In this document: one piece after another, positions 1 to 61,540 of the stretch
How the letters are laid out: each line of letters starts with the position of its first letter
How positions within the stretch are numbered: position 1 is the first letter of the stretch
Program-made: the position numbers and the translations under genes
Notes under the pieces: model-generated
Seen by the model: only the letters and a program-made list of their open reading frames with translations
Database searches by the model: none
Told to the model about the DNA's origin: nothing
Source of the DNA: an uncultured Candidatus Binatia bacterium
GTDB taxonomy: Bacteria > Desulfobacterota > Binatia > HRBIN30
Length of the DNA stretch: 64,000 nucleotides
NCBI GenBank assembly: GCA_964524885.1
Contig: CAZGEJ010000008.1
Location: 53,462 to 117,461, forward strand
Reading direction: 5' to 3'

Positions 1-3000
1 TCGACGTCCTTGACGAAGCCGATCCGGTCGGCGGCATGGCCGAGCAATTCGACGTCGTTGCCGCGAATGGTCGAGTCGGTGATCGTCATCGCGAGGTCTT
101 CGCGGTTGACGAGGAACTCGCAGCCGAACGGATCGCTGAAGCACGCCACCGGATCGCCGATGAGCTCGACCATCTCGTCGAGCAGCTGATCCAACGTCTC
201 CTCGAAGAAGGCCTGCAGAACCGCTTGGTCGCCCTCGGCCGCGGCCAGCTCTTCGAGGTCGAGGTCGAAGGTCAGGTCTTCGTTCTCGACGGTGATGTCG
301 ATATCGCCGGCGCGGTGCGAACTGCCCTCTTCCACGTGGGCCAGGATCTCGGCACCGGTGATCGTGACATTGAGGCCGCGGAGGAACATCGGCCCGGAAT
401 CGCCGATCGACGCATCGTTGAGCGGATCGGTGCCGGCGATGTTGCGGGTCGACAGCACGCCGGTTGAGGTGATCTCCAGGTCGACGTCGGCCTCGACGTC
501 GATTTCGCCGCCAAGCGTGAGAAGATCGCCGAAGGTCAGCTGGTCGACGATGTCGAGGGCATCATCGACGCTGTCGATCCCGAGGAAGTCGGCGATCGGC
601 GTGATCACCGACATCAGGTCGAAGTTGCCGATCGTATTGAGCACGCCGGTGACGGCGTCCAAGCCCGCGACCTGCAACAAGACGCTGAGGGAGACGCCGC
701 CGACGCTGGCGCCGAGGACGTCGTCGATATCGAGGGCGCCGATGATGTCGATCAGGTCGTCGAGGTTGAAGTCGCCGCTATCGGTCTGCAACTTGCCGCT
801 GATGACGACGTCGCCCGAGGTGGCGACGCCCTCTTTCTCGTCGGCGTCGATATCGATGTTGCCGTCGGGGATGAGGAGGTCTCCGAGTACCATGCTGCCG
901 GCGTCGGCATAGAGGGTGGCGCCGTTCTCGACGACGACGCGGCCGCCTTCGAGGTCGATGGTGCCACCGTCGGCGGTGACCGTCACGCCGTTCGGCACGG
1001 TGATCGTGCCGCCGGCGTCGAGTTCGACGTTGCCCTCGGACCCGAGGAGTTCCTCGAAGGCGAACTCTTGGAGGAACTCCACGAGTTCTTCCAGCGTGAT
1101 GGTGCGCTCGCCGGTGATGAGGCCGGCGAGGTCGAGGCTCACGTTGCTCTCGGTCGCGAGCAGGTTCGAGTTGGTCGTCAGATTGTCGCCCGCGGTACCG
1201 CGGATGTTCTCCGCCTCGACGAGAAGGCCCGCATTGATGGTGATGTCGCTGCCGGCTTCCAGCTCGATGTACCCGTCCGGAGCGTAGAGATCGGTCCTCA
1301 CCGTCAAGTCGTCGTCCGCCAGCATGCGGATGTTGCCGCCGTCGAGCGGCGCCAAATCGATCAGCACCTGGCTCAGGTTGGCGCCCGAACTGATCTGAAT
1401 GTCCTGCGCGTAGAGATTGACGTTGCTCGGGATGCTGACGTCGTTGCCGCCATGCAGGTAGACGTCGTGAGCGAAGCCGCCGCCGTCGGTGTCGACGACC
1501 GAGATCGTCCGGCCCGGGTTGATCGACAGCAGGCCGGTCGTCGTCGACACCTTGATGTCGCCATCGGTGACGATCAGGTCGATCGGCACGTTCTGTGCCA
1601 CGCCTGAAGTCCAATCGAGGCTACCGGCGTAGTACTTGAAACCCGGCGCCGCAAGGTCGATGCCGTTGCCGGCGGTAATCTTCAGCAGGGCTCCATCGTC
1701 GTCGACCGCGGGTCGCTCGACCTGCAAGGTCACGTTGCTGCCCGGATCGACCATACCGGTGCGCGCCGTCAGCGTCATGGCGCTCGGATTGCCGCCGCCA
1801 TCGGTGTCGAGGGTATCGAGGGTGATGCCGTTGGCCAGGGTGAGATTCCCGCCGGCCGTCAGCTTCATCGTGCCGTCCTTGGCGTTCAGGCTGAAGGGCA
1901 CGTCGAGGTTGACGCCCGACTCGAAGTCGATGCTGCCCGCCGTGTGAACCAGATTGGCAAGAGGCAGGCCGGTGCCACCGTAGAGGCGCAGGCGTCCGCC
2001 GTCATTGGTACGGGCCGCGGTTTCGGCTTCCAGGGTGACGCGACTGACCAGCGACAGCAAGCCGTCGGCCTCGAGCGTCAGGTTGCCCGAGTTGCCGCTA
2101 CCGTCGCTATCGAGGGTACTGAGCCTGGTGACGTCGTCGTCGAAGGTCAGGTCGCCGCCGACGACGATCGACATCGAACCGTCGGGGGTATTGAGGTTGT
2201 AGGGGACCTCCCACGCGGCGCCGGACTCGATATCCATGCTGCCGGCCTTGATCGAGGTGTTGTCGGCGGTGCTCAGGGTACCGCCAGCATGCAGGATCAG
2301 GTGGCCGCCGTCGTTGTTGCGATCGCTGCGTTCGGCCAGCACTTGCACGGCGGAGGCGAGGGTCAGATTGCCGCCGGCGTCGATGGTGAGGTCGCCGGCA
2401 TCGCCGCTACCGTCGGTGTCGCGGGTCGACAGCGTGATGCCTGTCGCCGTGGTGATGTTGCCGCCCGCCTCGATCTCGAGGTTTTTGTCGAGGGCGCTCA
2501 GGCTGAAAGGCAGGTGAATGCTGCCGGTGCCCGCATCGAACTCCATACCGCCGGCTTGCAGGTCGAGGGTGCTGGGGAACGAGATGCCCGAGGCGGAACG
2601 AAGGCGCACGTATCCACCGTCGTTGACCAGCGCCGAGTCTTCGGCATCGAGCACGGCACCGGTTTGGATCGTCACGGTGCCGCCGTTGGCGAAGAGTTCG
2701 ATGTTGCCGGCCTGCTCCTCATGGTCGTCGGTACGCAGGATCTTGCCAGCGTTGACGGTGATGTTGCCCCCGACGTCGGTCTCGATGTTGCCGTCGGAGG
2801 GGAGCAGGTCGCGCAGGAGGATGTCGGGCACGATGCCGCGCAGGCTGTCGTTGAGATCGTCGAGCCCGAGGAGGTCGAGGATCGCTTGGGCACCCGGAAT
2901 GTCCGAGGTCACGACGTCGACGCCGAGATCGGTCAGGGTGAAGAAATGGGAGGCCTCGAGAACATCGAGGAGGGTGGTGAAGCCGAGAGCATCACGCAGA

Positions 3001-6000
3001 TCGTTGAGGCTGGCACCGTTGTCGATGCCGGAGAGCCAATCGCTCAGGCTGATCTTGCCGCTGACGAGTTCGGACAGGGTCAACGAGTCCGGCAAACCGA
3101 TGAGGTCGCCGACGCCCGCTTCCTTGGCAGCCTGACCGACCAGCGAGAGGTCGAGTTCGACGTCGAGGCCGCCGTCGCGGATCAACTCACCTAGATCGAA
3201 GTCGGGGATGAGGTTGATGTAGTCGCCGACGGTGACCTCGTTGGCGATGGTGACCAGGTTGCCGTTGATGACGAGGTTGCCACCAGCCGACAGCTCCATG
3301 CTGCCGCTGTGATCGAGGAGATCGTGCAACCCGTAGACGGTGTCGCTGGCCGTCAGGTTGGCGTTGATCGTCAGGTTGCCGCCGGCGTCGAGGATGATCT
3401 GGTTGCGCGTCGTATCGATCGCGCTGCCGACCGTGACGTCGCCGTCCGCGGTGCCCTTGAAGGAGTGCCCGTCGATGTCGACCCCGGCTTGGATGACCAA
3501 GGTATCGGTGGCGTTGTCGGTGTCGTCATCGATCGTATCGATGCCGATGGCGCCCCAGACGGAGCCCCAATAGAGATCGCTGAGCGAGGGATCCGGCTCA
3601 CTTCCGTAGCCGTCGAAGCCGGCGAGCACGGTGATGTCGCCGCTGGTCGCCTGCAGATCGTTGCTGACGACGATGCCGTCGCCGGCGCGCAGGCTGATGT
3701 CGCCGCCGCGCGCGACCAGGTCGATGGGGACATTGAGGCTCGTTCCCGAACCGATGTCGATACCTTCGGCGAACAGCGTCAGGTTCGAGGGCAGCGAGAC
3801 GCCGGTGTTGCCGAAGAGCGTCACGTCGCCCGCCGGACTGCCCGGGTCCCCATCCGTATCCTCGGTCGACAGGGTCCGGCCGCTCGGCACGGTCAAGGTG
3901 CCGGCGGTGGTGATCTCCAGATCGCCGTCGGGGGTGCGCAGATCGACGGGGACGGTCCACGAAGCGCCGGTGGCGACGTTGAGGCTACCCGCCGTGATCG
4001 TCATCGTATTCGGCGTCGTCAATGCGCCCCCGGCCTGCACCGTGAGCTTGCCACCGTCATCGACGCGCCCGGTATGTTGCGTCAGCAGGCTGGTGTTGGC
4101 ACCGAAGGAAATCGCATCTCCTGCCTCCAGGGTCAGGTCGCCGGCGTTACCGCCCGCCGGATCGATGGTCGAGAGAGCGACGTTGGCGTTGACGGTGATG
4201 TCTTCGGCGGCCACGAGCTCGAGATCGCCGTCCGTCGCCGTCAAGCTGAGGGGGACGGTGAGGCTGGCACCCGATTCGATGTCGATCGCGCCCGCCGCGA
4301 ACGTCATGCTGCTTGGCAGGGTCACGCCCGAGGGGCCGTGCAGGATGACGCTGGCGCCATCACCGGCCTCGGCACTCTGATCGGCACGCAGGATCACGCC
4401 GGAGTTGACGATGACGCTGCCGCTGAAGTCGCCCGGATCATGGATCGAGATGCCCGCCCGCAGTTCGATGTTGCCGGACTGGTCGGTGTCGGTAGTATCG
4501 AGGGTCCTGCTCGAGCTGACCGTGACATTGCCGCGTCCCCAGACCTCGATGTTGCCATCGGAGGGGATCAGATCGCGGACGACCACGTGGGGGATGATGT
4601 CTTCGACGGGGATTTCGAAATCCATGCCGAAGGTATTCGTACCGTCGAAGAAGATCGAGTAGAGCGGTTCGAGAAGGTCGCGCAGCGGATCGATGGCGGC
4701 TTCGTTGAGAATGTCGACGAGGGTGCGATCGCCGAGGGCGGTGCGGGCATCATTCATCGAAGGAGTGCCCGGCAGGATGTCGCCGATGAGGTCTTCGACG
4801 GTGAACTGCCCTTCGATGAGGTCGGCGAGATTGACGCTGTCGGGCAGGTCGACGGTATCGAGGTTGCCGAGCAAGTCGAGGACGCTGTTGAGCGTATCTT
4901 CGACGCCGGTTAGGTCGACCTCGATGTCGAGATCGACGAGCTGGGCTAGGTCGTAGTCGCCATAGGCGGCGAGGTAACTCGACAGGCTGATCTCGTCGGC
5001 CGAGGTCGTCAGGTTGCCGTTGATGGTGACGGATCCTCCGGAGTCGATGTCGATGCTGCCACTCGAAACGCCCAGGTCGGTGAGACCGTGCGTGCCGTCG
5101 GAGGCGTTGAGGGTGCCGCTGATGTCGACGTTGCCGCCGGCGTCGAGGTCGATGGCATAGCGCGTGGCGGTCAGCGAGCCGTCGATGTCGAGGCCGTTAC
5201 CCGCGACCAGGGTGATGCCGGTTCCGCTCAGGTCCGCGCCCGTGCTGAGGTTGAGCGACCCCCCCGACGATGCGTACACGGAGCCATTGGTCGCCGCGAG
5301 GTCGACCGGGATGGTGAAGTCACCACTGCCGGTGGAAGCGAGGCTGAAGCTCCTGCCCCGGACGAGGCTCGTGCTCGGGATGGTGATGGACGACCCCTGG
5401 AGGGTGACCGTACCGTCGCCGGTGCTACCGTCCGAGTTCAGGGCCGACAGATCGACTCCGGTATTGAGTGTCAGGGCGCCGCCAGCGGTGACGCGAATGT
5501 CACCGTCCGGAGCCGTCAAGTCGTACGTCAGGGTCAAGGCGCCGCCCGAGGCGAGGTCGTACGAACCACCGTCGAGTGTCAGCCCCGTGCCGAGGGAAAG
5601 CGTTGCATCGGAAAGGAGGGAGATTTTGTTCCCATCGTTGGCGGCGCTGCCGTTGGCGTCGAGCGTGACGCCGTTGCCGATCGTCAGGTTTCCGACCGCA
5701 TCGAGGGTCAGGGCGCCGGCGGTACCGCCGCCATCGTCGAGGGTGGTCAGCGAGCGACCGTCGGGCACGCTCAGCGCCCCACCCACTACGATCGAGATGC
5801 CGCCGTCTTCGGCCGCCATGTCGAACGGAATCGTCAGATCGCTGGCCGAGGTGATTTGGTAAGCGCCGGCATCGATCGTCGTCGAGGCCGGCAGGGTCAG
5901 CGTGCCGCCGGCCAACAGGGCGACGGTGCCGCCGTTGTTGGCCCCGGGGCGATCCGCGTCGAGGGTGACCGATTCTTCGAGCAGGATGTGACCGCCGGCG

Positions 6001-8528
6001 GTGAGTCGGATCGAGCCGGCGGTGCCCGTCGTCGGAACGGTCGACAGCGTCACACCATCGAGAATCGCCAGGTCGCCTTTGACACTGATTTCGATGTCGC
6101 CGCTGGGGCTGAACATGTTGAAGGGGATGGTGAACCCGGCGAGCGACTCGAAGTCGAAGCTCCCGGCCACCGGGGTAAGGGTCGTCGGCGCAATCAATTC
6201 GCCGCCCGCGAGGAGCGACAGCTTGCCACCCAGGTCGGAGGTCGCGGCGTTACGCGCCACCAGATCGACGCCGCTGCCGAGAGTGAGGTCGATGCCGGCT
6301 TGCAGGGTGAGATCGTTCGAGCGACCGCCGCCGTCACTGTCGAGGGTCGACAGGTCGACGTTGTCGGACAGGGTCAGTCCCTCGGCGCTGTAGATGCGCA
6401 GGTCGCCGTCCGGCGTCGCAATGCTGTTGGTGATGGTCAACGCCCTGCCCGACTCGATGTCCAAGCTGCCGGCGTCGAGGGTGGTGGAGGACGGCAGGGT
6501 CAGTGCGCCGTCGGCGTGGATCGACACGGCGCCGCCGTCGTTGGTCGCGCTGCCGTTGGCGTCGATCGTCATGCCCGTGCCGAGGGTGAGGGCGCCCGTG
6601 GCGTCGAGAGTGATGTTGCCGGCGACGCCGCCCGCCGCGTCGACGGTGTTGACGGTCGTACCGTTGCTGAAGCTGAGGTCGCCGCGGACATGCACCTCGA
6701 TCGCACCATCGGGAGCCACGAGGTTGAACGGGATGAGCAGACTGGCGCCGGTGTCGATATCGATGCTGCCGGCGTCGAGGACGAGATTGACCGGTACGAG
6801 CAACTCGTCACCTGCGTTGAGCGTCACTTTGGCGCCGTCGTTGTTGGCACTGCCGTTGGCATCGATCGAGGCACCGGACTCGAGCGTCAGGTCGCCAGCG
6901 GCTTCGAGGCTCAGGGTGCCGGCGGTTCCCCCGGCACTATCGACCGTCGACAAGCTAGTATCGCTGGCGATCGTCAGGTTTTGGCCGCTCTTGATGGAAA
7001 TCGAACCATCCGGTGCGACCAAATCGATGGCGAAGCGCAGCGATGCGCCCGACTGGAGGGCGAACGAGCCACCTTCGAGCGTCATGTCGGCGGCGAGGTT
7101 CAAGGCATCGCCAGCCTTCAGAGTCACGGCACCGCCGTCGTTGGTCGAGGCCGAGTCGGCATCCAAGGTGGCCCCGCTGGCGATCGTCAAATCGTCACCG
7201 GCTTCGAGCGTGAGCGCACCGGCACGATCGCCGACGTTGGCGTCGGTGGTCAGCACTTGGCTGCCGCTGCCGATGGTGATGTCGTCGCCTGCCTTGAGGG
7301 TGAGGCTGCCCGCATTCTGTCCGGCGGTGGCATTGGAGGTGCGCAGGTCCGAGCCGCTGGCGACGGCGATCGAACCGGAGACGAACCACGACTCGCTGGC
7401 GCCGCCGGTATTGTAGCTCCCCGAGAGCTGCAGCAGGTCGACGTCGAGTTCGATGCCGGCGATGCCCGACACACCGGCCCCGCCGGTGAGCAGCGGCGTC
7501 GAGAAATCGAGGGAACCGCCGTTGCCGATTTGGAACGACGTATTTGCCATGGCGGCGCTGTCGACCGCCTCGACCGTGACGTTGCCGCCCGACTTCGAGC
7601 CCTTGGCGCGGGTGGCGATTTTGGCGCCGCCGCTGAGGCTGACTTCGTCCGCCTCGATGCGGATGTTGCCGCCGTCGACGGTATTGGACGCATCGCTGGC
7701 GATCGTACCGGAGACGCTGATGTCGTCCTCGGCGAGAATGACGATGTCGCCGTTCTCGACGGCGATTTGCGCGCCCGACGCGTAGCTGTTGGTGTTGACG
7801 ACGTCGGAGAAGCTCGGCGCGGTACCGGTGAAGACGGCACCCGATTGGATGGTGCCGGTGTGTTGAACGGCACCGGCATCGATGCGCACGTCGCCGATGG
7901 CGTTGACGGTACCGTCGATACGAACGACGCCGCGATCGTCGATCGGGGTGGTACCGAGCAGCACCTTACGCGCCTCGCTGTCACGCGGTGTCGTTCCGTC
8001 GAAGAAATCGTCGACGAAGTCCTTCGTCGAGGTGGCGACGGACAAGGTGCCGACGTTGACGACACCGCCGGAGCCGACGACGAAGCCGTTGGGGTTGGCG
8101 AAGTAGACGTTGCCGCCGATTTGCCCGCCCTTGATCGAATTGAGCACGCCGTGGATGTCGGTCTTTTCGTCGGTGACGATGTTGAGGAGGTTCTTGGTCG
8201 TACCTGGCAGGTGAAGATTGACCACCTTGCCGGTGTTGACGTCGAACCGGGTGAACGAGTTGAAGGCGTTGTCGCCGTTGACCGTGGTCGTCGTGACGTC
8301 GGTCACGTTGCCGGAGGTCGCGAACGAAGTGCCGGTGCGTCCGTCCGTCGCCATCGAGCCGTCGGCGCTGACGACCTGTGCCAGGGTGACGCTGCACAGG
8401 TGCGACAAGATGACGGTCGAGACCAGGGCTTGGCGGAGGATCTCGCGACGCAGGCGGCGCATGGTCCGACGCCGCCGCGCCGCTTGGCGCAATCGCAGCA
8501 ACTCTGTCGTTCGACGTCCTTCCACCAT
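1..8528 (-). CDS. Giant TpsA-like filamentous haemagglutinin family exoprotein (two-partner secretion substrate), partial; the 3' end lies beyond the window start
   Basis: Manual reverse-complement translation from ATG at 8528 gives MVEGRRTTELLRLRQAARRRRTMRRLRREILRQALVSTVILSHLCSVTLAQVV..., an extended Arg-rich signal peptide. The TPS-domain motifs follow: GDNAFNSFTRFDVNTGKVVNL, LLNIVTD, GGNVYFANPNGFVVGSGGVVNVGTLSVAT (matching NW.SFNIG / LNRV / NG.VFLINPNGI.FG / VNVG.L.AST of the haemagg_act domain). After that come long Gly/Asp/Thr/Leu-rich beta-helical repeats. The frame stays open to position 1. No listed minus-strand ORF shares this frame, and an open-ended ORF would not be reported by a stop-requiring ORF finder. 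An alternative start is the in-frame ATG at 8462 (MRRLRREI...). Confidence 0.8.
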   Translation of the reverse strand, partial: MVEGRRTTELLRLRQAARRRRTMRRLRREILRQALVSTVILSHLCSVTLAQVVSADGSMATDGRTGTSFATSGNVTDVTTTTVNGDNAFNSFTRFDVNTGKVVNLHLPGTTKNLLNIVTDEKTDIHGVLNSIKGGQIGGNVYFANPNGFVVGSGGVVNVGTLSVATSTKDFVDDFFDGTTPRDSEARKVLLGTTPIDDRGVVRIDGTVNAIGDVRIDAGAVQHTGTIQSGAVFTGTAPSFSDVVNTNSYASGAQIAVENGDIVILAEDDISVSGTIASDASNTVDGGNIRIEADEVSLSGGAKIATRAKGSKSGGNVTVEAVDSAAMANTSFQIGNGGSLDFSTPLLTGGAGVSGIAGIELDVDLLQLSGSYNTGGASESWFVSGSIAVASGSDLRTSNATAGQNAGSLTLKAGDDITIGSGSQVLTTDANVGDRAGALTLEAGDDLTIASGATLDADSASTNDGGAVTLKAGDALNLAADMTLEGGSFALQSGASLRFAIDLVAPDGSISIKSGQNLTIASDTSLSTVDSAGGTAGTLSLEAAGDLTLESGASIDANGSANNDGAKVTLNAGDELLVPVNLVLDAGSIDIDTGASLLIPFNLVAPDGAIEVHVRGDLSFSNGTTVNTVDAAGGVAGNITLDATGALTLGTGMTIDANGSATNDGGAVSIHADGALTLPSSTTLDAGSLDIESGRALTITNSIATPDGDLRIYSAEGLTLSDNVDLSTLDSDGGGRSNDLTLQAGIDLTLGSGVDLVARNAATSDLGGKLSLLAGGELIAPTTLTPVAGSFDFESLAGFTIPFNMFSPSGDIEISVKGDLAILDGVTLSTVPTTGTAGSIRLTAGGHILLEESVTLDADRPGANNGGTVALLAGGTLTLPASTTIDAGAYQITSASDLTIPFDMAAEDGGISIVVGGALSVPDGRSLTTLDDGGGTAGALTLDAVGNLTIGNGVTLDANGSAANDGNKISLLSDATLSLGTGLTLDGGSYDLASGGALTLTYDLTAPDGDIRVTAGGALTLNTGVDLSALNSDGSTGDGTVTLQGSSITIPSTSLVRGRSFSLASTGSGDFTIPVDLAATNGSVYASSGGSLNLSTGADLSGTGITLVAGNGLDIDGSLTATRYAIDLDAGGNVDISGTLNASDGTHGLTDLGVSSGSIDIDSGGSVTINGNLTTSADEISLSSYLAAYGDYDLAQLVDLDIEVDLTGVEDTLNSVLDLLGNLDTVDLPDSVNLADLIEGQFTVEDLIGDILPGTPSMNDARTALGDRTLVDILNEAAIDPLRDLLEPLYSIFFDGTNTFGMDFEIPVEDIIPHVVVRDLIPSDGNIEVWGRGNVTVSSSRTLDTTDTDQSGNIELRAGISIHDPGDFSGSVIVNSGVILRADQSAEAGDGASVILHGPSGVTLPSSMTFAAGAIDIESGASLTVPLSLTATDGDLELVAAEDITVNANVALSTIDPAGGNAGDLTLEAGDAISFGANTSLLTQHTGRVDDGGKLTVQAGGALTTPNTMTITAGSLNVATGASWTVPVDLRTPDGDLEITTAGTLTVPSGRTLSTEDTDGDPGSPAGDVTLFGNTGVSLPSNLTLFAEGIDIGSGTSLNVPIDLVARGGDISLRAGDGIVVSNDLQATSGDITVLAGFDGYGSEPDPSLSDLYWGSVWGAIGIDTIDDDTDNATDTLVIQAGVDIDGHSFKGTADGDVTVGSAIDTTRNQIILDAGGNLTINANLTASDTVYGLHDLLDHSGSMELSAGGNLVINGNLVTIANEVTVGDYINLIPDFDLGELIRDGGLDVELDLSLVGQAAKEAGVGDLIGLPDSLTLSELVSGKISLSDWLSGIDNGASLNDLRDALGFTTLLDVLEASHFFTLTDLGVDVVTSDIPGAQAILDLLGLDDLNDSLRGIVPDILLRDLLPSDGNIETDVGGNITVNAGKILRTDDHEEQAGNIELFANGGTVTIQTGAVLDAEDSALVNDGGYVRLRSASGISFPSTLDLQAGGMEFDAGTGSIHLPFSLSALDKNLEIEAGGNITTATGITLSTRDTDGSGDAGDLTIDAGGNLTLASAVQVLAERSDRNNDGGHLILHAGGTLSTADNTSIKAGSMDIESGAAWEVPYNLNTPDGSMSIVVGGDLTFDDDVTRLSTLDSDGSGNSGNLTLEADGLLSLVSRVTLEAETAARTNDGGRLRLYGGTGLPLANLVHTAGSIDFESGVNLDVPFSLNAKDGTMKLTAGGNLTLANGITLDTLDTDGGGNPSAMTLTARTGMVDPGSNVTLQVERPAVDDDGALLKITAGNGIDLAAPGFKYYAGSLDWTSGVAQNVPIDLIVTDGDIKVSTTTGLLSINPGRTISVVDTDGGGFAHDVYLHGGNDVSIPSNVNLYAQDIQISSGANLSQVLIDLAPLDGGNIRMLADDDLTVRTDLYAPDGYIELEAGSDITINAGLLVEAENIRGTAGDNLTTNSNLLATESNVSLDLAGLITGERTITLEELVEFLQEFAFEELLGSEGNVELDAGGTITVPNGVTVTADGGTIDLEGGRVVVENGATLYADAGSMVLGDLLIPDGNIDIDADEKEGVATSGDVVISGKLQTDSGDFNLDDLIDIIGALDIDDVLGASVGGVSLSVLLQVAGLDAVTGVLNTIGNFDLMSVITPIADFLGIDSVDDALDIVDQLTFGDLLTLGGEIDVEADVDLEITSTGVLSTRNIAGTDPLNDASIGDSGPMFLRGLNVTITGAEILAHVEEGSSHRAGDIDITVENEDLTFDLDLEELAAAEGDQAVLQAFFEETLDQLLDEMVELIGDPVACFSDPFGCEFLVNREDLAMTITDSTIRGNDVELLGHAADRIGFVKDV

Positions 8529-8530
8529 AG

Positions 8531-8538
8531 CCCCCCCC
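8531..8538 (-). repeat. Homopolymeric G8 tract (C8 on the plus strand) 2 nt upstream of the tpsA ATG, within or replacing the Shine-Dalgarno region
   Basis: Plus strand reads ...ccaccatag cccccccc tg...; on the minus strand this is caGGGGGGGGctATGgtg. Confidence 0.7.
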
Positions 8539-8617
8539 TGTCGCTCGATCGTCGTGCTCATGGATCCGAAATCCCGATTGGTCTTCGTCGCTAGGCTGGC
8601 GTCACGCATGATCGTCC

Positions 8618-21548: not shown

Positions 21549-21592
21549 GGCACCCCTGCGCGCCGGCCGTGCCGCGGCGAGGCCGGCCAGGC

Positions 21593-52256: not shown

Positions 52257-52446
52257 GATCCTGCCGGACGTCAACGTCCTCGTGCACGATTACAACTCCA
52301 ACCTTCCGGCCGCCACTTCACGAACCTGCAGGCGGCGCTCAAGGTCGCGGCGCGCATCCGCTTCGCCTGGCGAAGCAGTTTCGAACGAGTGTGAAGGCAT
52401 CAGGTACCAATGGAACCTGCGCGGCGAAGGTTTCGGGCTCCCGTAG
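52234..52446 (+). pseudogene. Possible degraded vapC-like (PIN) toxin remnant
   Basis: Starts MILPDVNVLVHDYNSN (a PIN N-terminus-like sequence) and then loses coherence. It is preceded by an 11-nt spacer after a ...PSAR* mini-ORF end, which is the typical antitoxin-stop/toxin-start geometry. Confidence 0.3.
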
Positions 52447-53180
52447 TTGTATTCCTGGGGCTGGCAGCAATCGCCTCGGGGATGGCGGCGATCTATACGC
52501 TCCGATTCCCGGTGTACTTGTGGTTGAGCCATCTGTGGAGCGAGTCAGGGGCACGCGCTGCCGTGGGGTATGCCGCGATTGAAGCACCGAACATCGAAGC
52601 GGAATCGTTGTACGTATACGATTCGTTCCCGTATCCTCGCGTTGACATTACGAATCCGCGTTTCCAGCTCGGCGTGGTCGAATCGCCTGCTCTGTCCGGA
52701 CAGACGCCGGTGGAGATCGCTGTCAACCGCGCAAAGGCCTATCTGCGGGCGATCGCTCCGGAGATCGGACTCGCGCCGTTCGAGAGCTTGCGCGAAGTAT
52801 CCGTCTCCGCAGGGGCGCCGCCCTACAACTTCGTGGTCGTGCTCCAGCGGACGGTGGATGGTATCGATGTCGAGGGTGCGACTGCAATCGTCACGATCGG
52901 GCCGAACGACGAGGTCACAGGAGTCGTTGTCGCCCTGGTCAGACTGGATGACTCGGTCGCGTTGATTACCAGTGAGAGTGGTCTGAGCAAGAGCTCGATC
53001 GTTCGAGGAATGGCGTGGCTCACGGGTCAGTCGCCTGAAAGTATGTGGTGCGAGCGATACTTATCGGTGCAGGCACCGCATCTCCGGTGGAGGGTTACGT
53101 TCGGGCTGGAGGTCGTCACTGTAGATGCGATCACGGGTGCCTTCATTAGCTACGAACTGGGTCCGGGGTTCCTTCCGTAG
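52410..53180 (+). CDS. Hypothetical secreted or membrane-anchored protein (256 aa)
   Basis: ORF with an N-terminal hydrophobic segment VVVFLGLAAIASGMAAIYTL; no recognisable motif. Confidence 0.4.
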   Translation: MEPARRRFRAPVVVFLGLAAIASGMAAIYTLRFPVYLWLSHLWSESGARAAVGYAAIEAPNIEAESLYVYDSFPYPRVDITNPRFQLGVVESPALSGQTPVEIAVNRAKAYLRAIAPEIGLAPFESLREVSVSAGAPPYNFVVVLQRTVDGIDVEGATAIVTIGPNDEVTGVVVALVRLDDSVALITSESGLSKSSIVRGMAWLTGQSPESMWCERYLSVQAPHLRWRVTFGLEVVTVDAITGAFISYELGPGFLP

Positions 53181-53715: not shown

Positions 53716-53991
53716 TCAATGGTAATCCACGATCTCGACGTCCTCCGCGGCATCGGTCCAGCGGAAGCAAATCCGCCATTGATCGTTGATGCGGATGCTC
53801 CACTGGCCCTCCCGATCACCGGAGAGCTTCTCCAGTCGGTTGCCCGGCGGCGCGCGCAGATCACCGAGCTGGGTGGCCGCATCCAGCGCTTGGAGCCTGC
53901 GTTCGGCGACCGACCGAAACGCGCGAAATCGGGCAGGACACTTGCCGCCGTAGAGCGCCTCGGTGTCCTTGCCCCGGAAGGTCTTGATCAC
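53716..53991 (-). CDS. higB: HigB toxin (RelE/ParE superfamily plasmid-maintenance killer)
   Basis: VIKTFRGKDTEALYGGK...LDAATQLGDLRAPPGNRLEKLSGDREGQWSIRINDQWRICFRWTDAAEDVEIVDYH matches HigB. A GTG start is assumed; an in-frame ATG at 54075 would add 28 aa. Confidence 0.8.
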   Translation of the reverse strand: MIKTFRGKDTEALYGGKCPARFRAFRSVAERRLQALDAATQLGDLRAPPGNRLEKLSGDREGQWSIRINDQWRICFRWTDAAEDVEIVDYH

Positions 53992-54098
53992 GCCGGGAAG
54001 GTATACCGCGTTGCGGTAAGTGTCTAGCGGTATGCACGCGGGGGAGGGGTCAGGGTACGCGACGCAGGAGCGCATCCAATGGCGAATCGGGGTGGCAC

Positions 54099-54124
54099 CA
54101 CTCCAAGTGCTCGATGAGTTTCGA
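54099..54124 (+). repeat. 26-bp direct repeat, copy 2 (CCAAGTGCTCGATGAGTTTCGAGAAA)
   Basis: See copy 1. It is also preceded by a short ORF ending ...PSAR* (MANRGGTTPSAR*). Confidence 0.8.
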
Positions 54125-54662
54125 GAAAGGCGCGTGCCGGGGCTTGCGTTTGAGCTTGGGGGCGCGTTTCCGGGGGCGAAATGGCGGCGCAAGGTCCGCG
54201 GCGGTGGGGTGAATTCGCCGTGTCGGTGATCAGCGGGGCGAACGAGGTCGGTGCAGCGGCGTTCGACCATGGCGGTGCTCCGTGCCTGCGTCCAGCGTAC
54301 GACGTTCCCTTCTGATGCTGCCAAGGCGGACTCGGCGAAATCTAAGGCTCCTGGCTGCCACTGCGACTGTGCGCAGCGGAATGCGCGGCGCTTCGCGGCC
54401 GACGCTCGCTGCGAAGCCATCGGCTCGGGTCGACGCTCATCGGCGGCGAGAGCGCGTGCCGATGTTCTGGGTTGATCTTTTAAATCTGACGTGCGAGCAG
54501 TCCTCCTGAAGTATCTTGTAAGAAAAACTGATTCGGTCGCACGTCTTGCCGACGTGTTGCCCTAACGACAGGGCCTCCGCGGGGGAGGTCAGGCGCATCA
54601 CCGACGAAGCGCGTAGTCATCGGTTCCCGGCGACCACATCGCTTCGTAAAGGGAGGGATTCC

Positions 54663-57600
54663 GTGACCTCGACCCGAAACCTACTCTTCTTCTGGTTGCT
54701 GCTGGCCGCCGCTGCCCCCGCCTACGCAACGAGCTACACCTGGACCGCCGGAGGATTCGTCTCCGGGTCCGCAACCGTGTGGAGCAATCCCGCCAATTGG
54801 AACCCCAACGGCGTACCTGGACCCGGAGATGATGTCGTCATCGACGCCACCATCACCTCGGAGAACGTCTATCTCGACGTCAACGTCACCGTCCGCAACT
54901 ACACCCAGAGCGGACTCAACTTGTACGCAGATGGGAACCTCACCACGACCGGAACCCTGACGTGGCTGGGAGGCCAGATGCAGCGGGCCGGGCTCGCCAC
55001 CGGCGACATCAACGCCAACGGCCCGGTCCTCATCAGCGGCAGCGCATCCAAGATCCTCGGCCGCACATTCAATTGTAATGCCGGAGCGACGTGGACCGGT
55101 TCCGGCGACATCTTTCTCGGGCAGAACGTCGACAACGCAGTGCTCAACATCGCTGCTGGCACCGTCTTTGAGATCCGAGGTGATGCCACGTTCAAGGGCT
55201 CGCTGCTGAGCAACGGCAAGACGGGAACCATCAACAACGCCGGCACCTTGCGCAAGACGACCGCTACCGGGATCACCAAGGTGGAGTCACCGGTCGTCTT
55301 CAACAATACCGGCGCGACCGACATTCAGTCGGGAACCTTGGATCTGACCACCAACGCCACCTACAGCACCGGCACCTTCGGCGCCACGGGCGGCGGGGTG
55401 GTCGGCTTCAGCACCGGTACCCACACCATCCAACCGCCGGCGGCGTTCAATGGCAATACGCTGGTCAACGGCGCGACGGTGAGTTTCACCGGCACTTCGA
55501 ATGCCGTCGGCAGCCTGAGCGTTTCCTCGGGCACGCTGAACCTCAACACGACCGGCACCCTAACCGCCACGAGCATCGCGCCGGCCGGTGGCACGACGAA
55601 TTTCATCGGACCCGTCAACGCCGGGACCGTCAACGCGAGTGCCGGCACTTCGGCGATTACCGGTGCGCTCACCGCCGCGAACCTACAGCTGAGCGGCACC
55701 GCTACGGTCAACTTCACGGCGAGCACTCCAGCCCTGACAGACGTCAGCCTCTCGGGCGGAACTCTCACCTTCGATACCAGCGGCACTGCAGTCGCCGTCG
55801 GCAGCCTCACCCAAAGCGGCGGCACGCTGCAGGGCGCTGACGACGTCAACGTCACCGGTGCACTCAGCTATTCGGCAGGCACGATGGGCGGCACCGGCGC
55901 CACCAACGCCAACGGCGCGTGGTCGCTCAGCGGCACCGGAACCAAGACTCTTCGTCGTACCCTCAACAGCAATGCCGATGCGACTTGGATGAACGACGGC
56001 ACGCTGACCCTCGGAAACGGCGCGGTCGGCGGCGTGCTCAACATCGCCAACGGCACCACCTTCGACGCTCAGGGCAACGGGTCTTTCGCACTCGGAGCCA
56101 CCAGCGCCACGATCAACAACAGCGGTACCTTCCAGAAGAGCGTCGGTTCCGGCACCACCACGGTCGGCACGTCCGTCGTCTTCAACAACACCGGTGCCGT
56201 CGACGTCCAGACAGGCACCTTGTCGATCGGCTCCCCCGGAAATACCTATTCCGGAACCTTCGACGCCACCGGCGCGCAGTTGCGCCTCACCGCTGGCACG
56301 CACAACTTCGGCGGCGCGGCCTCGGTGACCGGTGGCCTGACCGTCGCTGGCGCGACCGTCAACTTCAACGGCACAGGCGCCACTCTCGGCAGCGTGACCG
56401 TCAGCAGCGGTACCCTCAACGTCTCGCCGAGCAGCGCCGTGGCCATCAGCAGCGTGAGCGTCTTGGGCGGTACGGCAAACTTCACGACGGCTGGGACGAC
56501 CATCGACAGCATCGGCATCACCAACGGAACCCTGAATCTCAGCACTTCGACCGCAACCAGCGCCACCAGCCTGACGATGAGCGGCGGAACACTGTCCGGC
56601 TCCGCCACTCTCCATGTATCCGGAGCGTTGGCTTGGTCTGGCGGCCTCATGAGCGGCACCGGCACGACCAACGCCAACGGGGCCTGGACCATGAGCGGTG
56701 TCGGGTCCAAGAGTCTTGGGCGAACGTTGAACAGCAATGCATCCGCCATCTGGACCGGGAGCGGCCCACTGGCTTTCAACGGCGGCGTGCTCAACATCGC
56801 GAGCGGCACGGTCCTCGACACCCAGGGCGACGCATCTATCTCGTTTAGCGCCGTGAGCGCTACCGTAAACAACAGCGGAACGTTCCAGAAATCGGGGGGC
56901 ACCGGCACCACCGCCGTCAACGCCAACGTCGTCTTCAACAATGGCGGCGTGGTGGACGCGCAAACCGGCACGATCACTTTCGGCAGCGGCGGCGGAACGC
57001 ATACCGGCTCCTTCGACGGTACCGGCGCGACCCTCAGCTTCACCGCCGGTACTCACACCTTCAGCGGCAATGCATCGGTGAGTGCCGCCAACTTCAGCGG
57101 CGCTACCGCCAACTTCACCGGTACCAGCGCGACTCTGAGCGCCATCACGCTCAGCGGCGGTACGGTGAACTTCAGCACCAGCAGTCCGTCGGTGAGCATC
57201 GCCGGATTGACGCAGAGCGGTGGGACGCTGAACGGGGCCGACGACGTCAACGTGAGCGGTGCGCTGTCGTGGACCGGCGGGACGATGAGTGGTACCGGCG
57301 CGACGAACGCCAACGGTACGCTCTCGATCTCCACGAGCACGGCGAAGATCCTGGGGCGTACCCTGAACAGCAACGGCACGGGAACATCGGGCACCTCGGT
57401 AAACCTTGGATTCAGCAGCGGCACCCTCAACATCGCGAGCGCGACGACGTTTACCGCGGATGCCGCGAGTTGGACTCTCGCGTCGACGGGCGGCACGGTG
57501 AACAACGCGGGAACCTTCATCAAGTCGACGGCGGGTGGCGCTGCGACGCTGACGTTCGCGTCCGGGATTGCCTTCCACAACAGCGGAACGGTGGATGTAC

Positions 57601-60242
57601 AAAGCGGCTCGCTAACGCTCCCCACCAGCGGCACGCACTCCGGTTCATTCGATGCCACCGGAGCGATGGTCACGTTCAGCGGCGGCACTCATACCTTCAC
57701 GGGCGGGAACGCGCTCACGGGCAGCTCGACGTTCAGCGGCGCCACGGCGAACTTCAACGGAACGACCTCGACCCTCGAAACCGTAACGCTCAGCAGCGGG
57801 ACCCTGCAAGGTTCGGGGACGGTAGACATTGGAACATTGACCTGGAGCGGCGGCACGATGGCCGGCACCGGTGTCACGAATGTGAACACTGCGTCGACGA
57901 TCAACGGCAGTGCGAGCAAAACTCTCGCTCGAACGCTGAACAGCAAAGGCACCGGCAACTTCACGCAAGGCAGCCTGGTGTTCGGCAGCAGCGGTGTCGG
58001 TGGCGTGCTCAACATTGCGGCGGGTACGACATTCAGTGTTTCCGGCGCACAGTTTCCGTCCCCATCGATCAGCCTCGGCGCGGTCAGCGGGGTGATCAAC
58101 AACGCCGGTTCGTTCGTCAAGTCGAATACGTCCGGCAGCGTGGCGATCGGTGCTGGTGTCGCGTTCAACAACAGCGGCACGGTCGACGTGGATGCCTCCG
58201 GTCTCATCCTGAGCGGCGGCGGCACCCATGCAGGATCCTTCGATGCTACGGGCCGGACCATCGAGTTCAACGGCGGGACCCATACCTTCACCGGGAGCGG
58301 CACTGTGATCGGCGGCGTCACCTTCACCAATAGCGGAACCTTCGACTTCACGGGCAGCGGGGCGACGCTCGGCAACGTCACCCTCAACAGCGGTACGGTG
58401 AGCCTCAACACCAGCAGCCCCACCGTCAGCGCCGCAAGCTGGATCCACAACGGCGGGACTCTCCAGGGCGCCAATCACCTGACGCTGAGCGGTGCGCTGA
58501 CCTGGTATGGTGGCTCGATCGTGGGTGGCGCGGATCTCACGGTCAACGGGGCTGCCACCATCGCCTTTTCGACGACGCTGGCGCGCAGGCTCAACGTCAA
58601 CGGGCCGGGCGGCACGCTCTCTCACACCCTCACCATGGGCGTCGGCGGCGTCGGCGGCGAACTCCATATCGGACCGGCCGGGGTACTCGTGGTTCAAGGT
58701 ACCACCGGGTCGATCAACTTCGGGGACACCAGCGCCGCAATCCACAATGCCGGCGTGCTCCAGCGCAGCAACGATACAGGCACGACCACCGTCGGCCCAG
58801 GGGTGACCTTCGAGAATTCCGGCACCGTTACCGCGACGCTCGGCACCCTGAACGTCGGCGGCGCGTACTCGCAGACGGCGGGGACGACCAGCATCAACGG
58901 TGGCTCCATCGTCGCGACGGGTCCCGTGAACGTGCAGGGCGGAACGATCGCGGGCTCCGGATCGCTGACGATGGACGTCGTCAATAGCGGCGGCACGCTG
59001 AGCCCCGGTGCATCACCAGGCTTGCTCACGTCGACCGGCGGTTACGGCCAAGGCACTGCTGCGACATACACGGTCGAGATCGGCGGCCTCATCGCGGGAA
59101 CGGAGTTTGACCAGACGACGTGGACTGCTCCCGTCACTCTCGACGGTACTCTCAACGTGAGCGTGATTTCGCCGTTCGTGCCAAACGCCGGCGACACCTT
59201 CGAGATCATGACCTTCCCGTCGCGCACGGGTACCTTTGCCACGGTCAACGGATTGATCGTCGGCAACGGCAAGGGCTTCACTCTCGACTATGGGGCCACC
59301 GCACTGAGGTTGACGACCATCGAAGAGATCTGTGGCGACTCGACCGACAACGACGGCGATACTTTGATCGATTGCCTCGATCCTAAATGCGCCGATGCGC
59401 TCTACTGCGTTGGGACCGCCACCCCGACGCAGACGCCGACTCCGACCATCACAGAGACCCCGACGCATACCGCGACCGTGACCCCGACCGAGGCCGCGAC
59501 GGCGACGCAAACGGCCACCGAGACGCCAACGGAGACGGCGACGCACACCGCGACGTCGACGCCGACCGAAACGCCGACCCCATCAGCGACCGACACCCCG
59601 ACAGCCGCGCCGACCGATACCGCGACTCTGACACCGTCTGCTTCTCCGACCGCGTCTGCTTCGCCGACACCGGCGGTCGGAACGAGCTGCCCTGCGGCGC
59701 CCGTGACCTGTCGCGACGGCGGCAAGGGATCGGTCGCGCTGAGCTACGATTCCGATCCCACAAAGCGCAAGTTTTCGTGGAAGTGGGGGAAAGGTCTGCT
59801 GACGAGCGAACAAGCGGATTTCGGCAATCCGGTGAGCGGAACACCGCGCTACACTCTCTGCCTCTACGACGAGAGTGCCGATATCCCTACGCTGGCGATG
59901 GAGCTCGAAGTGGACGCTCAGGGTACTTGCGACGACAAGCCGTGTTGGAAGCTAGTTTCCGACAAGGGCTGGGCTTACAAGAGCAAGAGCGGCAACGGCA
60001 GTGGAGTGCTGAAGGTCGCCTTCAAGGGTGGCGACGCCGGCAAACCTTCGCTGCGGGTATCCGCGAAGGGCGCGAGCCTGCCGCTGCCGACGCCGCTCAG
60101 CGGTAGCGAGTCCTTGGACCTCGACAGCAACGTCATCGTGCAGTGGCACGTCAGCGCCCCGGCCGGTTGCTGGCAGAGCGAATTCTCCCTCACGGGCGTG
60201 AAGAAGAACGACGGGGAAGACTTCAAAGCGGTCGCGCCGTAA
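54663..60242 (+). CDS. Large secreted beta-helix-like repeat protein (1859 aa): five ~290-aa tandem repeats, a CxDxDxDGD metal-binding-like Cys motif, a Thr/Pro linker and a C-terminal Cys-containing domain
   Basis: GTG start with GGGAGGG upstream and signal peptide LLFFWLLLAAAAPAYA. The repeated block is ...GTGxTNANGxWxxSGxGxKxLxRTLNSNAxAxWxxxGxLxxGNGAVGGVLNIAxGTxF...NNSGTFQKSxGxGTT.... Then comes EEICGDSTDNDGDTLIDCLDPKC, followed by (TPTxT)n. Confidence 0.75.
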   Translation: MTSTRNLLFFWLLLAAAAPAYATSYTWTAGGFVSGSATVWSNPANWNPNGVPGPGDDVVIDATITSENVYLDVNVTVRNYTQSGLNLYADGNLTTTGTLTWLGGQMQRAGLATGDINANGPVLISGSASKILGRTFNCNAGATWTGSGDIFLGQNVDNAVLNIAAGTVFEIRGDATFKGSLLSNGKTGTINNAGTLRKTTATGITKVESPVVFNNTGATDIQSGTLDLTTNATYSTGTFGATGGGVVGFSTGTHTIQPPAAFNGNTLVNGATVSFTGTSNAVGSLSVSSGTLNLNTTGTLTATSIAPAGGTTNFIGPVNAGTVNASAGTSAITGALTAANLQLSGTATVNFTASTPALTDVSLSGGTLTFDTSGTAVAVGSLTQSGGTLQGADDVNVTGALSYSAGTMGGTGATNANGAWSLSGTGTKTLRRTLNSNADATWMNDGTLTLGNGAVGGVLNIANGTTFDAQGNGSFALGATSATINNSGTFQKSVGSGTTTVGTSVVFNNTGAVDVQTGTLSIGSPGNTYSGTFDATGAQLRLTAGTHNFGGAASVTGGLTVAGATVNFNGTGATLGSVTVSSGTLNVSPSSAVAISSVSVLGGTANFTTAGTTIDSIGITNGTLNLSTSTATSATSLTMSGGTLSGSATLHVSGALAWSGGLMSGTGTTNANGAWTMSGVGSKSLGRTLNSNASAIWTGSGPLAFNGGVLNIASGTVLDTQGDASISFSAVSATVNNSGTFQKSGGTGTTAVNANVVFNNGGVVDAQTGTITFGSGGGTHTGSFDGTGATLSFTAGTHTFSGNASVSAANFSGATANFTGTSATLSAITLSGGTVNFSTSSPSVSIAGLTQSGGTLNGADDVNVSGALSWTGGTMSGTGATNANGTLSISTSTAKILGRTLNSNGTGTSGTSVNLGFSSGTLNIASATTFTADAASWTLASTGGTVNNAGTFIKSTAGGAATLTFASGIAFHNSGTVDVQSGSLTLPTSGTHSGSFDATGAMVTFSGGTHTFTGGNALTGSSTFSGATANFNGTTSTLETVTLSSGTLQGSGTVDIGTLTWSGGTMAGTGVTNVNTASTINGSASKTLARTLNSKGTGNFTQGSLVFGSSGVGGVLNIAAGTTFSVSGAQFPSPSISLGAVSGVINNAGSFVKSNTSGSVAIGAGVAFNNSGTVDVDASGLILSGGGTHAGSFDATGRTIEFNGGTHTFTGSGTVIGGVTFTNSGTFDFTGSGATLGNVTLNSGTVSLNTSSPTVSAASWIHNGGTLQGANHLTLSGALTWYGGSIVGGADLTVNGAATIAFSTTLARRLNVNGPGGTLSHTLTMGVGGVGGELHIGPAGVLVVQGTTGSINFGDTSAAIHNAGVLQRSNDTGTTTVGPGVTFENSGTVTATLGTLNVGGAYSQTAGTTSINGGSIVATGPVNVQGGTIAGSGSLTMDVVNSGGTLSPGASPGLLTSTGGYGQGTAATYTVEIGGLIAGTEFDQTTWTAPVTLDGTLNVSVISPFVPNAGDTFEIMTFPSRTGTFATVNGLIVGNGKGFTLDYGATALRLTTIEEICGDSTDNDGDTLIDCLDPKCADALYCVGTATPTQTPTPTITETPTHTATVTPTEAATATQTATETPTETATHTATSTPTETPTPSATDTPTAAPTDTATLTPSASPTASASPTPAVGTSCPAAPVTCRDGGKGSVALSYDSDPTKRKFSWKWGKGLLTSEQADFGNPVSGTPRYTLCLYDESADIPTLAMELEVDAQGTCDDKPCWKLVSDKGWAYKSKSGNGSGVLKVAFKGGDAGKPSLRVSAKGASLPLPTPLSGSESLDLDSNVIVQWHVSAPAGCWQSEFSLTGVKKNDGEDFKAVAP

Positions 60243-60458
60243 CCGCCGGCTTCGACCGGCGAGGCTGTCGGCGTTCCAACAGCAAGCTTTTGCCGCTGAT
60301 GCACGCGGATGGACTGCCGGACCTCGATCAGAAGTTCCCAATCGTGGTAGTCGAGGAAGGCCTCGCAACAGAGGCGGCCCCCGCGTCGGCAGCGTCGGCC
60401 GTGCGACGCCGGGGCCGGCCCTGTTCGTGGGGCCGGCCCGCGGCCGAGCCATCTCGGG

Positions 60459-61540
60459 TCATAGGCTGGCGACGGAGTACTGCCGGTACTGCGTGGCGCA
60501 GACGCTCGTTCCCGCCAGACAGACCGTGACGGAGAAGTCCACCACGTCGGCCTCGTAGAGCTGGAAGTCCGCCGCCGAAGTCGTGTTCCCGTTCGCGTTG
60601 GCGGCCAGCAGGAAGTCCGGGCATCCCGTGTTCGTCCCCGACGTGCATGTCCAAAAGTACTGCAGCGGCTGGCCGCAACCGCTGAGCGAGGCCCCCGCAT
60701 CCAGGTGCAGGAGCTGCGGCAGGCGAATGCCGGAGGCGGGAGTGAGAGAGGCCGCCACGCCGCAGGTGCAGACCGTCGGCTCCCCACTGCAGTCCCACCC
60801 AGGCTCGCTGCCGCAGGAGGCCGAGCACCCGTCGTCCGGATCGATGTTGTCGTCGTCGCACAGCTCGGTGCCGCGGACCAGTCCGTCGCCGCAGATGGGC
60901 GAACAGACCGACGGGCCGCTGCCCACCGGGCAGGTCCAGCCGGTCTCGCGCACGCAGTCCGACGCGCAGCCGTCGCCGTCACTGGCATCGCCGTCGTCGC
61001 ACTGCTCGTCGCTGGCGACGATGCCGTCGGAGCATGTGGACAGGCAGCTCGACGGCTCGCCGGCGCAATCGTAGCCCGTCTCGGGCGCACACGATGCCGA
61101 GCAGCCGTCGCCGGAGGCTGGGTCGCCGTCGTCGCAGTCTTCCGACGGCGCGATCACGCCGTCGCCACACACGCGGGCCACGTCGTCGCCGACCAGCGAC
61201 GAGCATTCGCCGAGATACGTGTCCACGGTAGTGGCGTCGCCGTTCACCGCGCAGGCCCCCGACGCTTCCGCCTTCGCGAACGCATTGAAGAACTTCTGCT
61301 CGGCCTTTGCCACACAGGCCGCGTCGACGCTCGTGCCGGCCAGTGCCGCTTTAGCGCGGCACTTCGCGATGGACGCGAAACGCTTGCCACTGGCGTTCAG
61401 CTTCGCGGCTACGCAACGGGCGGCTGCGCTCGGCGCGGCTGAGACCGACTTCAACGGCATCGTGAACAGTTGCGCGGACAGCACCGCGCCGCACATCGCG
61501 GCCACCTTGGCCGCGAACTTGATTCGCGTGGAATTCATCG
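60459..61540 (-). CDS. Secreted Myxococcus-type cysteine-rich repeat protein (360 aa)
   Basis: Start at MNSTRIKFAAKVAAMCGAVLSAQ (signal peptide). Three tandem repeats follow: CGDGVIAPSEDCDDGDPASGDGCSASCAPETGYDC, CSDGIVASDEQCDDGDASDGDGCASDCVRETGWTC and CGDGLVRGTELCDDDNIDPDDGCSASCGSEPGWDC. Confidence 0.7.

Follow-up and report, generated by a model that had tools for sequence, protein, structure and literature searches.

An autotransporter-like beta-helix protein without a barrel, ending in a C-terminal domain common among exported proteins of Candidatus Binatia

The DNA analysed here (the window) is a stretch of 64,000 nucleotides (nt) from an uncultured Candidatus Binatia bacterium (GenBank assembly GCA_964524885.1, contig CAZGEJ010000008.1, positions 53,462 to 117,461 of the forward strand), and all coordinates given below are those of the window. 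We know of no cultured representative of Candidatus Binatia (Binatota), and to our knowledge the cell surface of this group is essentially unknown. The window contains a gene for a protein of 1859 amino acids (aa), composed of a signal peptide, a long repetitive region, an acidic Cys knot, a linker rich in Thr and Pro, and a C-terminal domain (CTD). Judged by its sequence, this protein adds a member to a widespread, unnamed family of barrel-less beta-helix proteins that lacks Pfam coverage, and its CTD belongs to a second, much larger family found at the end of many unrelated exported proteins of Binatia. The gene and its elements are the following.

54650..54658, plus strand: Shine-Dalgarno-like sequence AGGGAGGGA, read directly, 4 nt upstream of the GTG
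54663..60242, plus strand: whole gene, 1859 aa and stop codon, from the open reading frame (ORF) and its translation
54663..54728, plus strand: Sec-type signal peptide MTSTRNLLFFWLLLAAAAPAYA, aa 1-22, read from sequence
54729..54926, plus strand: N-terminal cap, aa 23-88, with the motif W..P.NW.P.G.P...DDV.I
54927..55820, plus strand: beta-helix module R1, aa 89-386, 298 aa (core and ~110 aa of extra rungs)
55821..56585, plus strand: beta-helix module R2, aa 387-641, 255 aa
56586..57221, plus strand: beta-helix module R3, aa 642-853, 212 aa
57222..57794, plus strand: beta-helix module R4, aa 854-1044, 191 aa
57795..58448, plus strand: beta-helix module R5, aa 1045-1262, 218 aa, modelled as a beta-solenoid
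58449..58988, plus strand: beta-helix module R6, aa 1263-1442, 180 aa, modelled
58989..59321, plus strand: terminal capping module, aa 1443-1553, resembling a stalk with a passenger-associated transport repeat (PATR), with GGTLSPGASPG..YTVEIGG..FDQ..LDGTLNVSV..GDTFEIMTF..RTGTF
59322..59408, plus strand: acidic double-disulfide knot EICGDSTDNDGDTLIDCLDPKCADALYC, aa 1554-1582, with matches to NF033662 and 7plp
59409..59678, plus strand: Thr/Pro-rich linker, aa 1583-1672, 90 aa
59679..60239, plus strand: CTD, aa 1673-1859, 187 aa, a predicted six-Cys beta-sandwich of a Binatia-wide C-terminal family

The longest stop-free frame of the gene opens at 54546, and the GTG at 54663 is a credible start because it lies 4 nt after AGGGAGGGA and because translation from it gives a typical Sec signal peptide, MTSTRNLLFFWLLLAAAAPAYA followed by TS, with a basic n-region, a hydrophobic core and an AxA cleavage site (AYA before T); the signal peptide reported in a preliminary description of this DNA is thus borne out by the layout read from the sequence. 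The GC content by codon position is 0.52/0.61/0.81 in a genome of 65 % GC, the third-position value indicating that 54663-60242 is the true frame. Scans for consensus promoters and terminators near both ends of the gene found nothing.

The cap motif recurs at the N-termini of distant homologues (P0004, P0007 and P0013, as 'W.NP.GGDW....NWS....P...DDVVI'). Behind the cap, a landmark of the form [RK][RT][LF]N[SCV][NK], mostly RTLNSN, is present in six copies (aa 134, 432, 687, 899, 1090 and 1308), and cuts at equivalent points divide the region into the six tandem modules listed above. They align over a common core of ~180 aa, and extra rungs of ~20 aa at the module ends explain their differences in length. 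Pairwise blastp comparisons of the modules give 36.6-187 bits (E 8e-7 to 1e-63; R2 and R3 share 57 % identity at E 1e-63), the best of 120 shuffled units reaching 25.8 bits, and R6 is the most diverged module, with 28-38 % identity to the others. Since the module scores lie far above those of shuffled units, the tandem super-repeat is real, with a variable period. The preliminary description had proposed five diverged repeats of ~290 aa; the super-repeat stands, while the count and the period have to be replaced by six modules of 180-298 aa. The autocorrelation peaks at 251/255, 212 and 19-26, so that a ~290-aa periodicity is formally absent, yet the super-repeat is clear. The enrichment in G, T, N and S claimed for the repeats agrees with the composition of the helix region (G 17.6, T 17.3, S 12.0 and N 8.0 %), in which the charged residues and His account for little (D 2.8, E 0.5, K 1.0, R 1.1 and H 1.1 %).

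An AlphaFold model of aa 1045-1585, containing short strands only, folds as a beta-solenoid (predicted local distance difference test, pLDDT, 85.4; predicted template modelling score, pTM, 0.77), and the fold likenesses of the helix include Vag8, EtpA, Hap, TibA and Ag43, ranked after others. The terminal capping module is not a seventh repeat, and an iterated search with a hidden Markov model finds it in 107 of 120 homologues, mostly as a single copy at the end of the helix. The profile of its alignment (A4) matches one solved structure, residues 463-552 of Ssp (8e7f), at E 2.9e-4. This stretch of Ssp belongs to a beta-helical stalk that includes a PATR, and the last rungs of that stalk resemble an autochaperone (PMC9977779). 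The PATR model PF12951 has no match in the 1859-aa protein at E<=1. Because fold and weak sequence similarity (to Ssp) agree, the proposal of the preliminary description that the helix region is a beta-helix resembling an autotransporter passenger is supported, as far as the model goes, and the predicted right-handed beta-helix is of the kind found in the passengers of type Va autotransporters. Its other observation, that no barrel or known anchor is visible, also holds, as the Pfam scan of the protein returned nothing at E <= 1, including the barrel PF03797 and the TPS domain PF05860, and the NCBIfam scan returned only a sub-threshold acid_disulf_rpt.

The helix family includes 238 homologues at E <= 1e-5, most of which match the helix region only. 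Their source labels include Rokubacteria, Phycisphaerae, Pirellulales, Chthoniobacteraceae, Gemmatimonadales and Dolichospermum (from metagenomes and metagenome-assembled genomes, MAGs), and their names at source are 'hypothetical' or 'fibronectin-binding autotransporter adhesin'. The 1859-aa protein matches the family with E values from 1e-210 to 1e-30 across 50-83 % of its length, and has all three of the family's elements: the W..NW.P..P..DDV cap, the tandem modules of ~200 aa (family consensus ..W.GG.M.G.G.T...G......K.L..RTLN..G....) and one terminal module (LSPG.SPG...ELGG...D.L...G.L.V). After the terminal module, homologues carry nothing, a PEP-CTERM (PF07589), an SLH domain (PF00395), Calx-beta, DUF11 or other tails, and some homologues have a TPS domain. 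As the tails vary while the helix is kept, the helix can be regarded as a cassette that is given lineage-specific end modules.

In the 1859-aa protein, the helix is followed by the acidic knot, which contains, at aa 1556-1575, the motif CGDSTDNDGDTLIDCLDPKC noticed in the preliminary description. The knot (EICGDSTDNDGDTLIDCLDPKC..C, aa 1554-1582) scores 30.2 bits against NF033662 (acid_disulf_rpt), below the cutoff of 41 bits and in a single copy, and matches the C-rich domain of teneurin-4 (7plp) at E 1.1e-4; by analogy, it probably binds Ca2+. The linker behind it, described earlier as a (TPT)n linker, is indeed one, with 57 % T+P and no K or R, and TPTxTPT linkers equally precede the CTD in the closest relatives of the protein.

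The CTD ends at the stop codon. The preliminary description had recognised a distinct C-terminal domain of ~180 aa, which is correct and incomplete, since the domain represents a very large, almost always C-terminal family that is nearly confined to MAGs of Candidatus Binatia. This family was revealed by an exhaustive phmmer search against 1.84 billion cluster representatives, which matched 4789 representatives at E <= 1e-3, 2499 of them at E <= 1e-10; a word-indexed search found only 1 short fragment with the CTD alone and 7 with a CTD alignment. The domain lies within a few residues of the C-terminus in ~146 of the 150 best matches (tallied by eye), and ends 0-5 aa before the stop codon in 81 of 93 CTD-bearing ORFs from genomes. 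Its partners, all usual kinds of exoprotein, are reprolysin, subtilase, Kelch, SBBP, LamG, FG-GAP, Chlamydia-PMP repeats, streptogramin-lyase-like propellers and choice-of-anchor Q, and every complete partner protein inspected has an N-terminus resembling a signal peptide. P0151 has an architecture like that of the 1859-aa protein, with two helix modules only. No Pfam or NCBIfam model covers the CTD in the 1859-aa protein or in any of 30 members, and no counterpart was found in the PDB. Literature searches on secretion, C-terminal domains, adhesins and surface proteins in Binatota/Binatia, and on PATR in Planctomycetes and Verrucomicrobia, gave nothing relevant.

A scan of one genome per species, with an alignment of six sequences as query, gave 79 CTD loci, most of them under the labels Candidatus Binatia, 'Deltaproteobacteria bacterium' (generic) or Polyangiaceae, with several genomes carrying multiple loci; many of the genomes under the last two labels belong to Binatota in GTDB. 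The window itself has a single copy. At some loci consecutive genes ending in a CTD form tandem arrays (four genes in L005, three in L065 and in L023, two each in L034 and L044). Immediately upstream of the CTD, 18 of the 93 ORFs have a Thr/Pro linker, and repeats rich in Cys, either myxo_disulf or CxDDxxxCT in type, are often found there. In L016-L048 and others, the Cys-rich units before the CTD read C.DD..PCT..D.C..G.C or are myxo_disulf repeats.

The structural model of the CTD (pLDDT 94) is a disulfide-containing beta-sandwich. Its conserved features, over ~185 aa, are six cysteines (C4, C11, C61, C84, C89 and C164) and the motifs WKW, LCxYD, PCWK, GWxY, CWxSxF and KKNDGxxFKA, and the domain of the 1859-aa protein (first row of alignment A1) has every invariant column. 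The six conserved cysteines point to an oxidising compartment as the place of folding. With a median isoelectric point (pI) of 9.1 and a median net charge of +6.5, the family is basic, which is compatible with binding to an anionic surface polymer. The possibility that the CTD is itself an outer-membrane barrel was rejected in view of its six cysteines, its richness in Lys, Asp and Ser, the sandwich model and the absence of matches to outer-membrane proteins. At the junction between linker and CTD there is a conserved motif L-x-A-G-C-P-x-x-P-x-x-x-C (columns 1-12 of A1), here A-V-G-T-S-C-P-A-A-P-V-T-C (window 59670-59700). Its first part looks like a lipobox, but its position is internal and it does not follow a hydrophobic stretch. 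This motif may be a processing site or merely the first disulfide loop.

Among the close relatives of the whole protein, P0001, from an NCBI-derived collection, is identical to it, and P0002 and P0003 share 83 % and 70 % identity, respectively, over the full length; both have another signal peptide, which ends in the same AYA site before T. The Binatia MAG that carries P0002 (GCA_964528465.1, locus L001) shows 85 % nucleotide similarity between window 54714-60245 and L001 10058-15589, a similarity that begins 51 nt within the ORF, past the differing signal peptide, and ends 3 nt beyond the stop codon. The flanks of the two copies have no similarity, even at the protein level; in the P0002 MAG a gene for a PDDEXK_3 protein lies downstream, and every other neighbour differs from those in the window. 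A gene for a PemK toxin is found, together with the PDDEXK_3 gene, near the copy in L001. As the similarity is confined to the gene, the two related genomes hold it in different contexts and with a different signal peptide, and its sharp bounds suggest a gene-sized transfer or recombination of an adhesin-like cassette.

The other features of the window that bear on this gene, or were described together with it, are the following.

60412..60439, no strand assigned: palindrome GGGCCGGCCC, two copies 8 nt apart, read directly, in the 216 bp that separate the convergent genes
60459..61538, minus strand: convergent gene, 359 aa, with TIGR02232 and PF13948 matches
3..8609, minus strand: fourth giant gene, TpsA-type, a 2899-codon stop-free frame that continues past the left window edge
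8618-14296, minus strand: 1892-aa Cys-rich protein without Pfam match

The convergent gene codes for a protein with a signal peptide, a Cys-containing N-terminal region, three myxo_disulf_rpt/DUF4215 repeats and a Cys-rich C-terminal region of ~105 aa. The three CGDG...CDDG...DGCS..C repeats announced for it in the preliminary description are confirmed by TIGR02232 (120.2 bits, cutoff 20.8) and PF13948 (79.1 bits, cutoff 27), each in three stretches; its start had been placed at 61540 and lies at 61538. A functional pairing of this gene with that of the 1859-aa protein was considered and rejected, as the synteny is absent from the P0002 MAG; the 85 %-identical gene having wholly different neighbours there, nothing indicates a functional link. 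In the gap between the two genes, the GGGCCGGCCC pair lies 20 nt from the stop codon of the convergent gene and could form a 10-bp stem of G+C, possibly a terminator hairpin serving both genes. The consensus terminator scan missed it because it has no T-run.

Three large secreted proteins had been counted in the window, an undercount, as the TpsA-like gene adds a fourth. From an ATG at 8609, which lies 8 nt past the stop codon of the 1892-aa gene, it codes for a two-partner-secretion exoprotein of at least 2869 aa, in which a leader that is long and basic precedes a TPS domain (PF05860, 46.3 bits, cutoff 33.5, with an NPNGF motif) and degenerate repeats of ~45 aa; no TpsB gene was seen within the window. 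The plus-strand ORFs 1944-3194, 3309-4913 and 5088-8594 (up to 1168 aa) have no Pfam matches and a codon-position GC of 0.85/0.5/0.6, a reversed pattern that identifies them as antisense shadows of the TpsA-like gene. The 1892-aa and 359-aa Cys-rich proteins were tried as homologues of each other and rejected (best E 0.38), and from their sequences none of the three or four big secreted proteins in the window is homologous to another. The Cys-rich units found before CTDs in many Binatia proteins are of the same kinds as those composing the 1892-aa and the 359-aa proteins. A common, lineage-specific set of extracellular modules thus serves the three proteins of the window, which are not homologous as wholes.

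The flanking genes are ordinary chromosomal ones, encoding UvrD, a metallo-beta-lactamase-fold protein, a HigB-like toxin, an alpha/beta hydrolase, ProB, histidine kinases, Kup and a multihaem cytochrome. The HigB-like match (PF05015, E 5e-16) concerns only the last ~64 residues of a 234-aa ORF just upstream of the 1859-aa gene (53716-54420, minus strand), so the true toxin gene is probably much shorter than this ORF. A 936-aa ORF (21002-23812, plus strand) has multihaem cytochrome c motifs and C-terminal TPR repeats, and a 256-aa ORF (52410-53180, plus strand) has a fungalysin/thermolysin propeptide (FTP) motif, in which no peptidase domain was detected.

Taken together, these observations are best explained, with a probability of roughly 0.55, by a Sec-exported, adhesin-like fibrous surface protein in which the CTD acts as a surface-attachment or export-targeting module replacing the barrel. 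The mature protein would form, over ~1490 residues, one long right-handed three-stranded beta-helix, made of the cap, the six modules and the PATR-like capping module, with a rod length estimated at roughly 30 nm (at ~24 residues per turn), and the acidic knot (probably Ca2+-binding) and the 90-residue Thr/Pro spacer would connect this rod to the CTD. The CTD is a portable module, which Binatia append to the C-termini of thousands of otherwise unrelated exported proteins. It would keep the protein attached to the cell surface or matrix, or label it for passage across the outer membrane, or both, and the rod would point outwards. The envelope of the host is presumably diderm, since a TpsA-type gene is present in the same window. 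The rod is poor in charged residues and rich in Thr, Ser, Asn and Gly, making a structural or binding surface likelier than an enzyme. The CTD is proposed as a substitute for the barrel because it is lineage-restricted, nearly always terminal, placed behind a linker and attached to unrelated Sec-exported proteins; its partners include domain types that precede known anchors elsewhere. The export route, the extracellular location, the adhesin role and the anchoring or targeting by the CTD are all inferred.

Several observations weigh against this surface-protein reading. The adhesin role is argued from analogy of fold alone, and a periplasmic location of the protein is possible. Of the CTDs in the alignment, that of the 1859-aa protein is the least basic (pI 5.9). 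The domain stands directly after the signal peptide in P0257, and P0191 and P0209 extend past it with a linker and a domain starting RRVFVTS.TYTGNLGG; these non-terminal positions count against any mechanism requiring a free C-terminus. Proteins consisting of a signal peptide and the CTD only appear to exist (P0244 and L037), which is more in keeping with a binding domain that acts autonomously than with a pure export tag. Finally, when the six-frame ORFs around the 79 CTD loci were compared all against all, no recurrent partner gene emerged among the neighbours; the clusters consisted only of shadow frames belonging to CTD genes and of a few housekeeping genes with local synteny. These exceptions, and the negative search for neighbouring machinery, favour binding or anchoring over a strict C-terminal secretion signal and make a lectin-like role possible.

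A further reading, in which the CTD tags cargo for a sorting or surface-display system specific to Binatota, as a functional analogue of the CTD of T9SS (type IX secretion system) or of PEP-CTERM/exosortase that is built on an unrelated, much larger, disulfide-bonded beta-sandwich, with the rod as one of several thousand cargos, is offered tentatively and is doubtful. The CTD might also be a module resembling a lectin or carbohydrate-binding module (CBM), which would send freely secreted proteins to an external polysaccharide, mineral or cells, the protein being released and not anchored to the cell. The cargo-less proteins agree with an autonomous binding function; release of the protein in this form is considered unlikely.

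It is improbable as well that the CTD is a true secretion signal for an unrecognised outer-membrane translocon of Binatia, perhaps cleaved at L-x-A-G-C-P, by analogy with the T9SS CTD of Bacteroidota, with the rod then released or re-attached. Such a signal would account for the extreme C-terminal position of the domain in ~97 % of the best matches and in the great majority of genomic ORFs, for its lineage restriction, for the linker and the conserved junction motif before it, and for a very diverse cargo that includes choice-of-anchor Q. It is difficult to reconcile with the N-terminal or internal position of the CTD in some proteins, with the proteins that have no cargo, with a size (187 aa with three likely disulfides) that is big for a signal, with the neighbours of the 79 loci, among which no conserved machinery was found, and with the absence of similarity to T9SS CTDs in Pfam, NCBIfam or the PDB. 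That the helix is an enzyme of the pectate-lyase superfamily (polysaccharide lyase, hydrolase or epimerase) and neither fibre nor adhesin is very unlikely indeed, because matches to such enzymes score lower than autotransporter passengers, D, E, K, R and H are scarce in the helix, the six near-equivalent repeats have no unique insert, and no Pfam Beta_helix, NosD or Pectate_lyase match was obtained.

The locus indicates that Binatia make autotransporter-like beta-helix fibres without an autotransporter barrel, and that one unannotated domain is common to thousands of their exported enzymes, propellers and adhesin-like proteins. The CTD provides a simple sequence handle for cataloguing the exported proteins of the phylum and raises a testable question, namely what its binding partner or transporter is. 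Should it be a sorting tag, it would be a new entry among the few lineage-specific protein-sorting systems; should it be a mere binding module, it would be a useful new domain family and little more.

Compared with known systems, the 1859-aa protein shares with type Va autotransporters (pertactin, IcsA, Ssp, Ag43 and Hap) an N-terminal Sec signal peptide, as read from the sequence, but lacks their 12-stranded translocator barrel (PF03797). Its C-terminus is instead a soluble-type, Cys-containing beta-sandwich behind a Thr/Pro linker, and its helix is built from six super-repeats of ~200 aa. TpsA exoproteins of two-partner secretion (type Vb; FHA, EtpA and HMW1) have a TPS domain, whereas this protein has no PF05860 and carries the W..NW.P..P..DDV cap in its place. 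With the barrel-less helix family, it has in common the cap motif, the ~200-aa modules and the terminal module; the CTD and the Thr/Pro linker are found only in the Binatia copies of that family (P0002, P0003, P0151 and the 1859-aa protein), as is the Cys knot, except in P0151. The CxDxxDNDxDxxxDCxDxxC spacing of the teneurin C-rich domain and NF033662 matches that of the knot, although those domains usually occur as several repeats and the knot is a single copy, below cutoff, at the junction between helix and linker. The CTD has no sequence or structural match to the T9SS CTD (Por_Secre_tail), PEP-CTERM, MYXO-CTERM or the bacterial pre-peptidase C-terminal (PPC) domain, is about twice the size of the T9SS CTD (187 versus ~80-100 aa), has six conserved cysteines, belongs to Binatia rather than Bacteroidota and, unlike these sorting modules, is not absolutely C-terminal. 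Nevertheless, the logic of its use is similar to theirs, being terminal, lineage-restricted, attached to unrelated Sec cargos and often preceded by a linker; each genome can have many paralogues, some of them in tandem arrays, and the folds of the T9SS CTD and PPC are all-beta, like that of the CTD.

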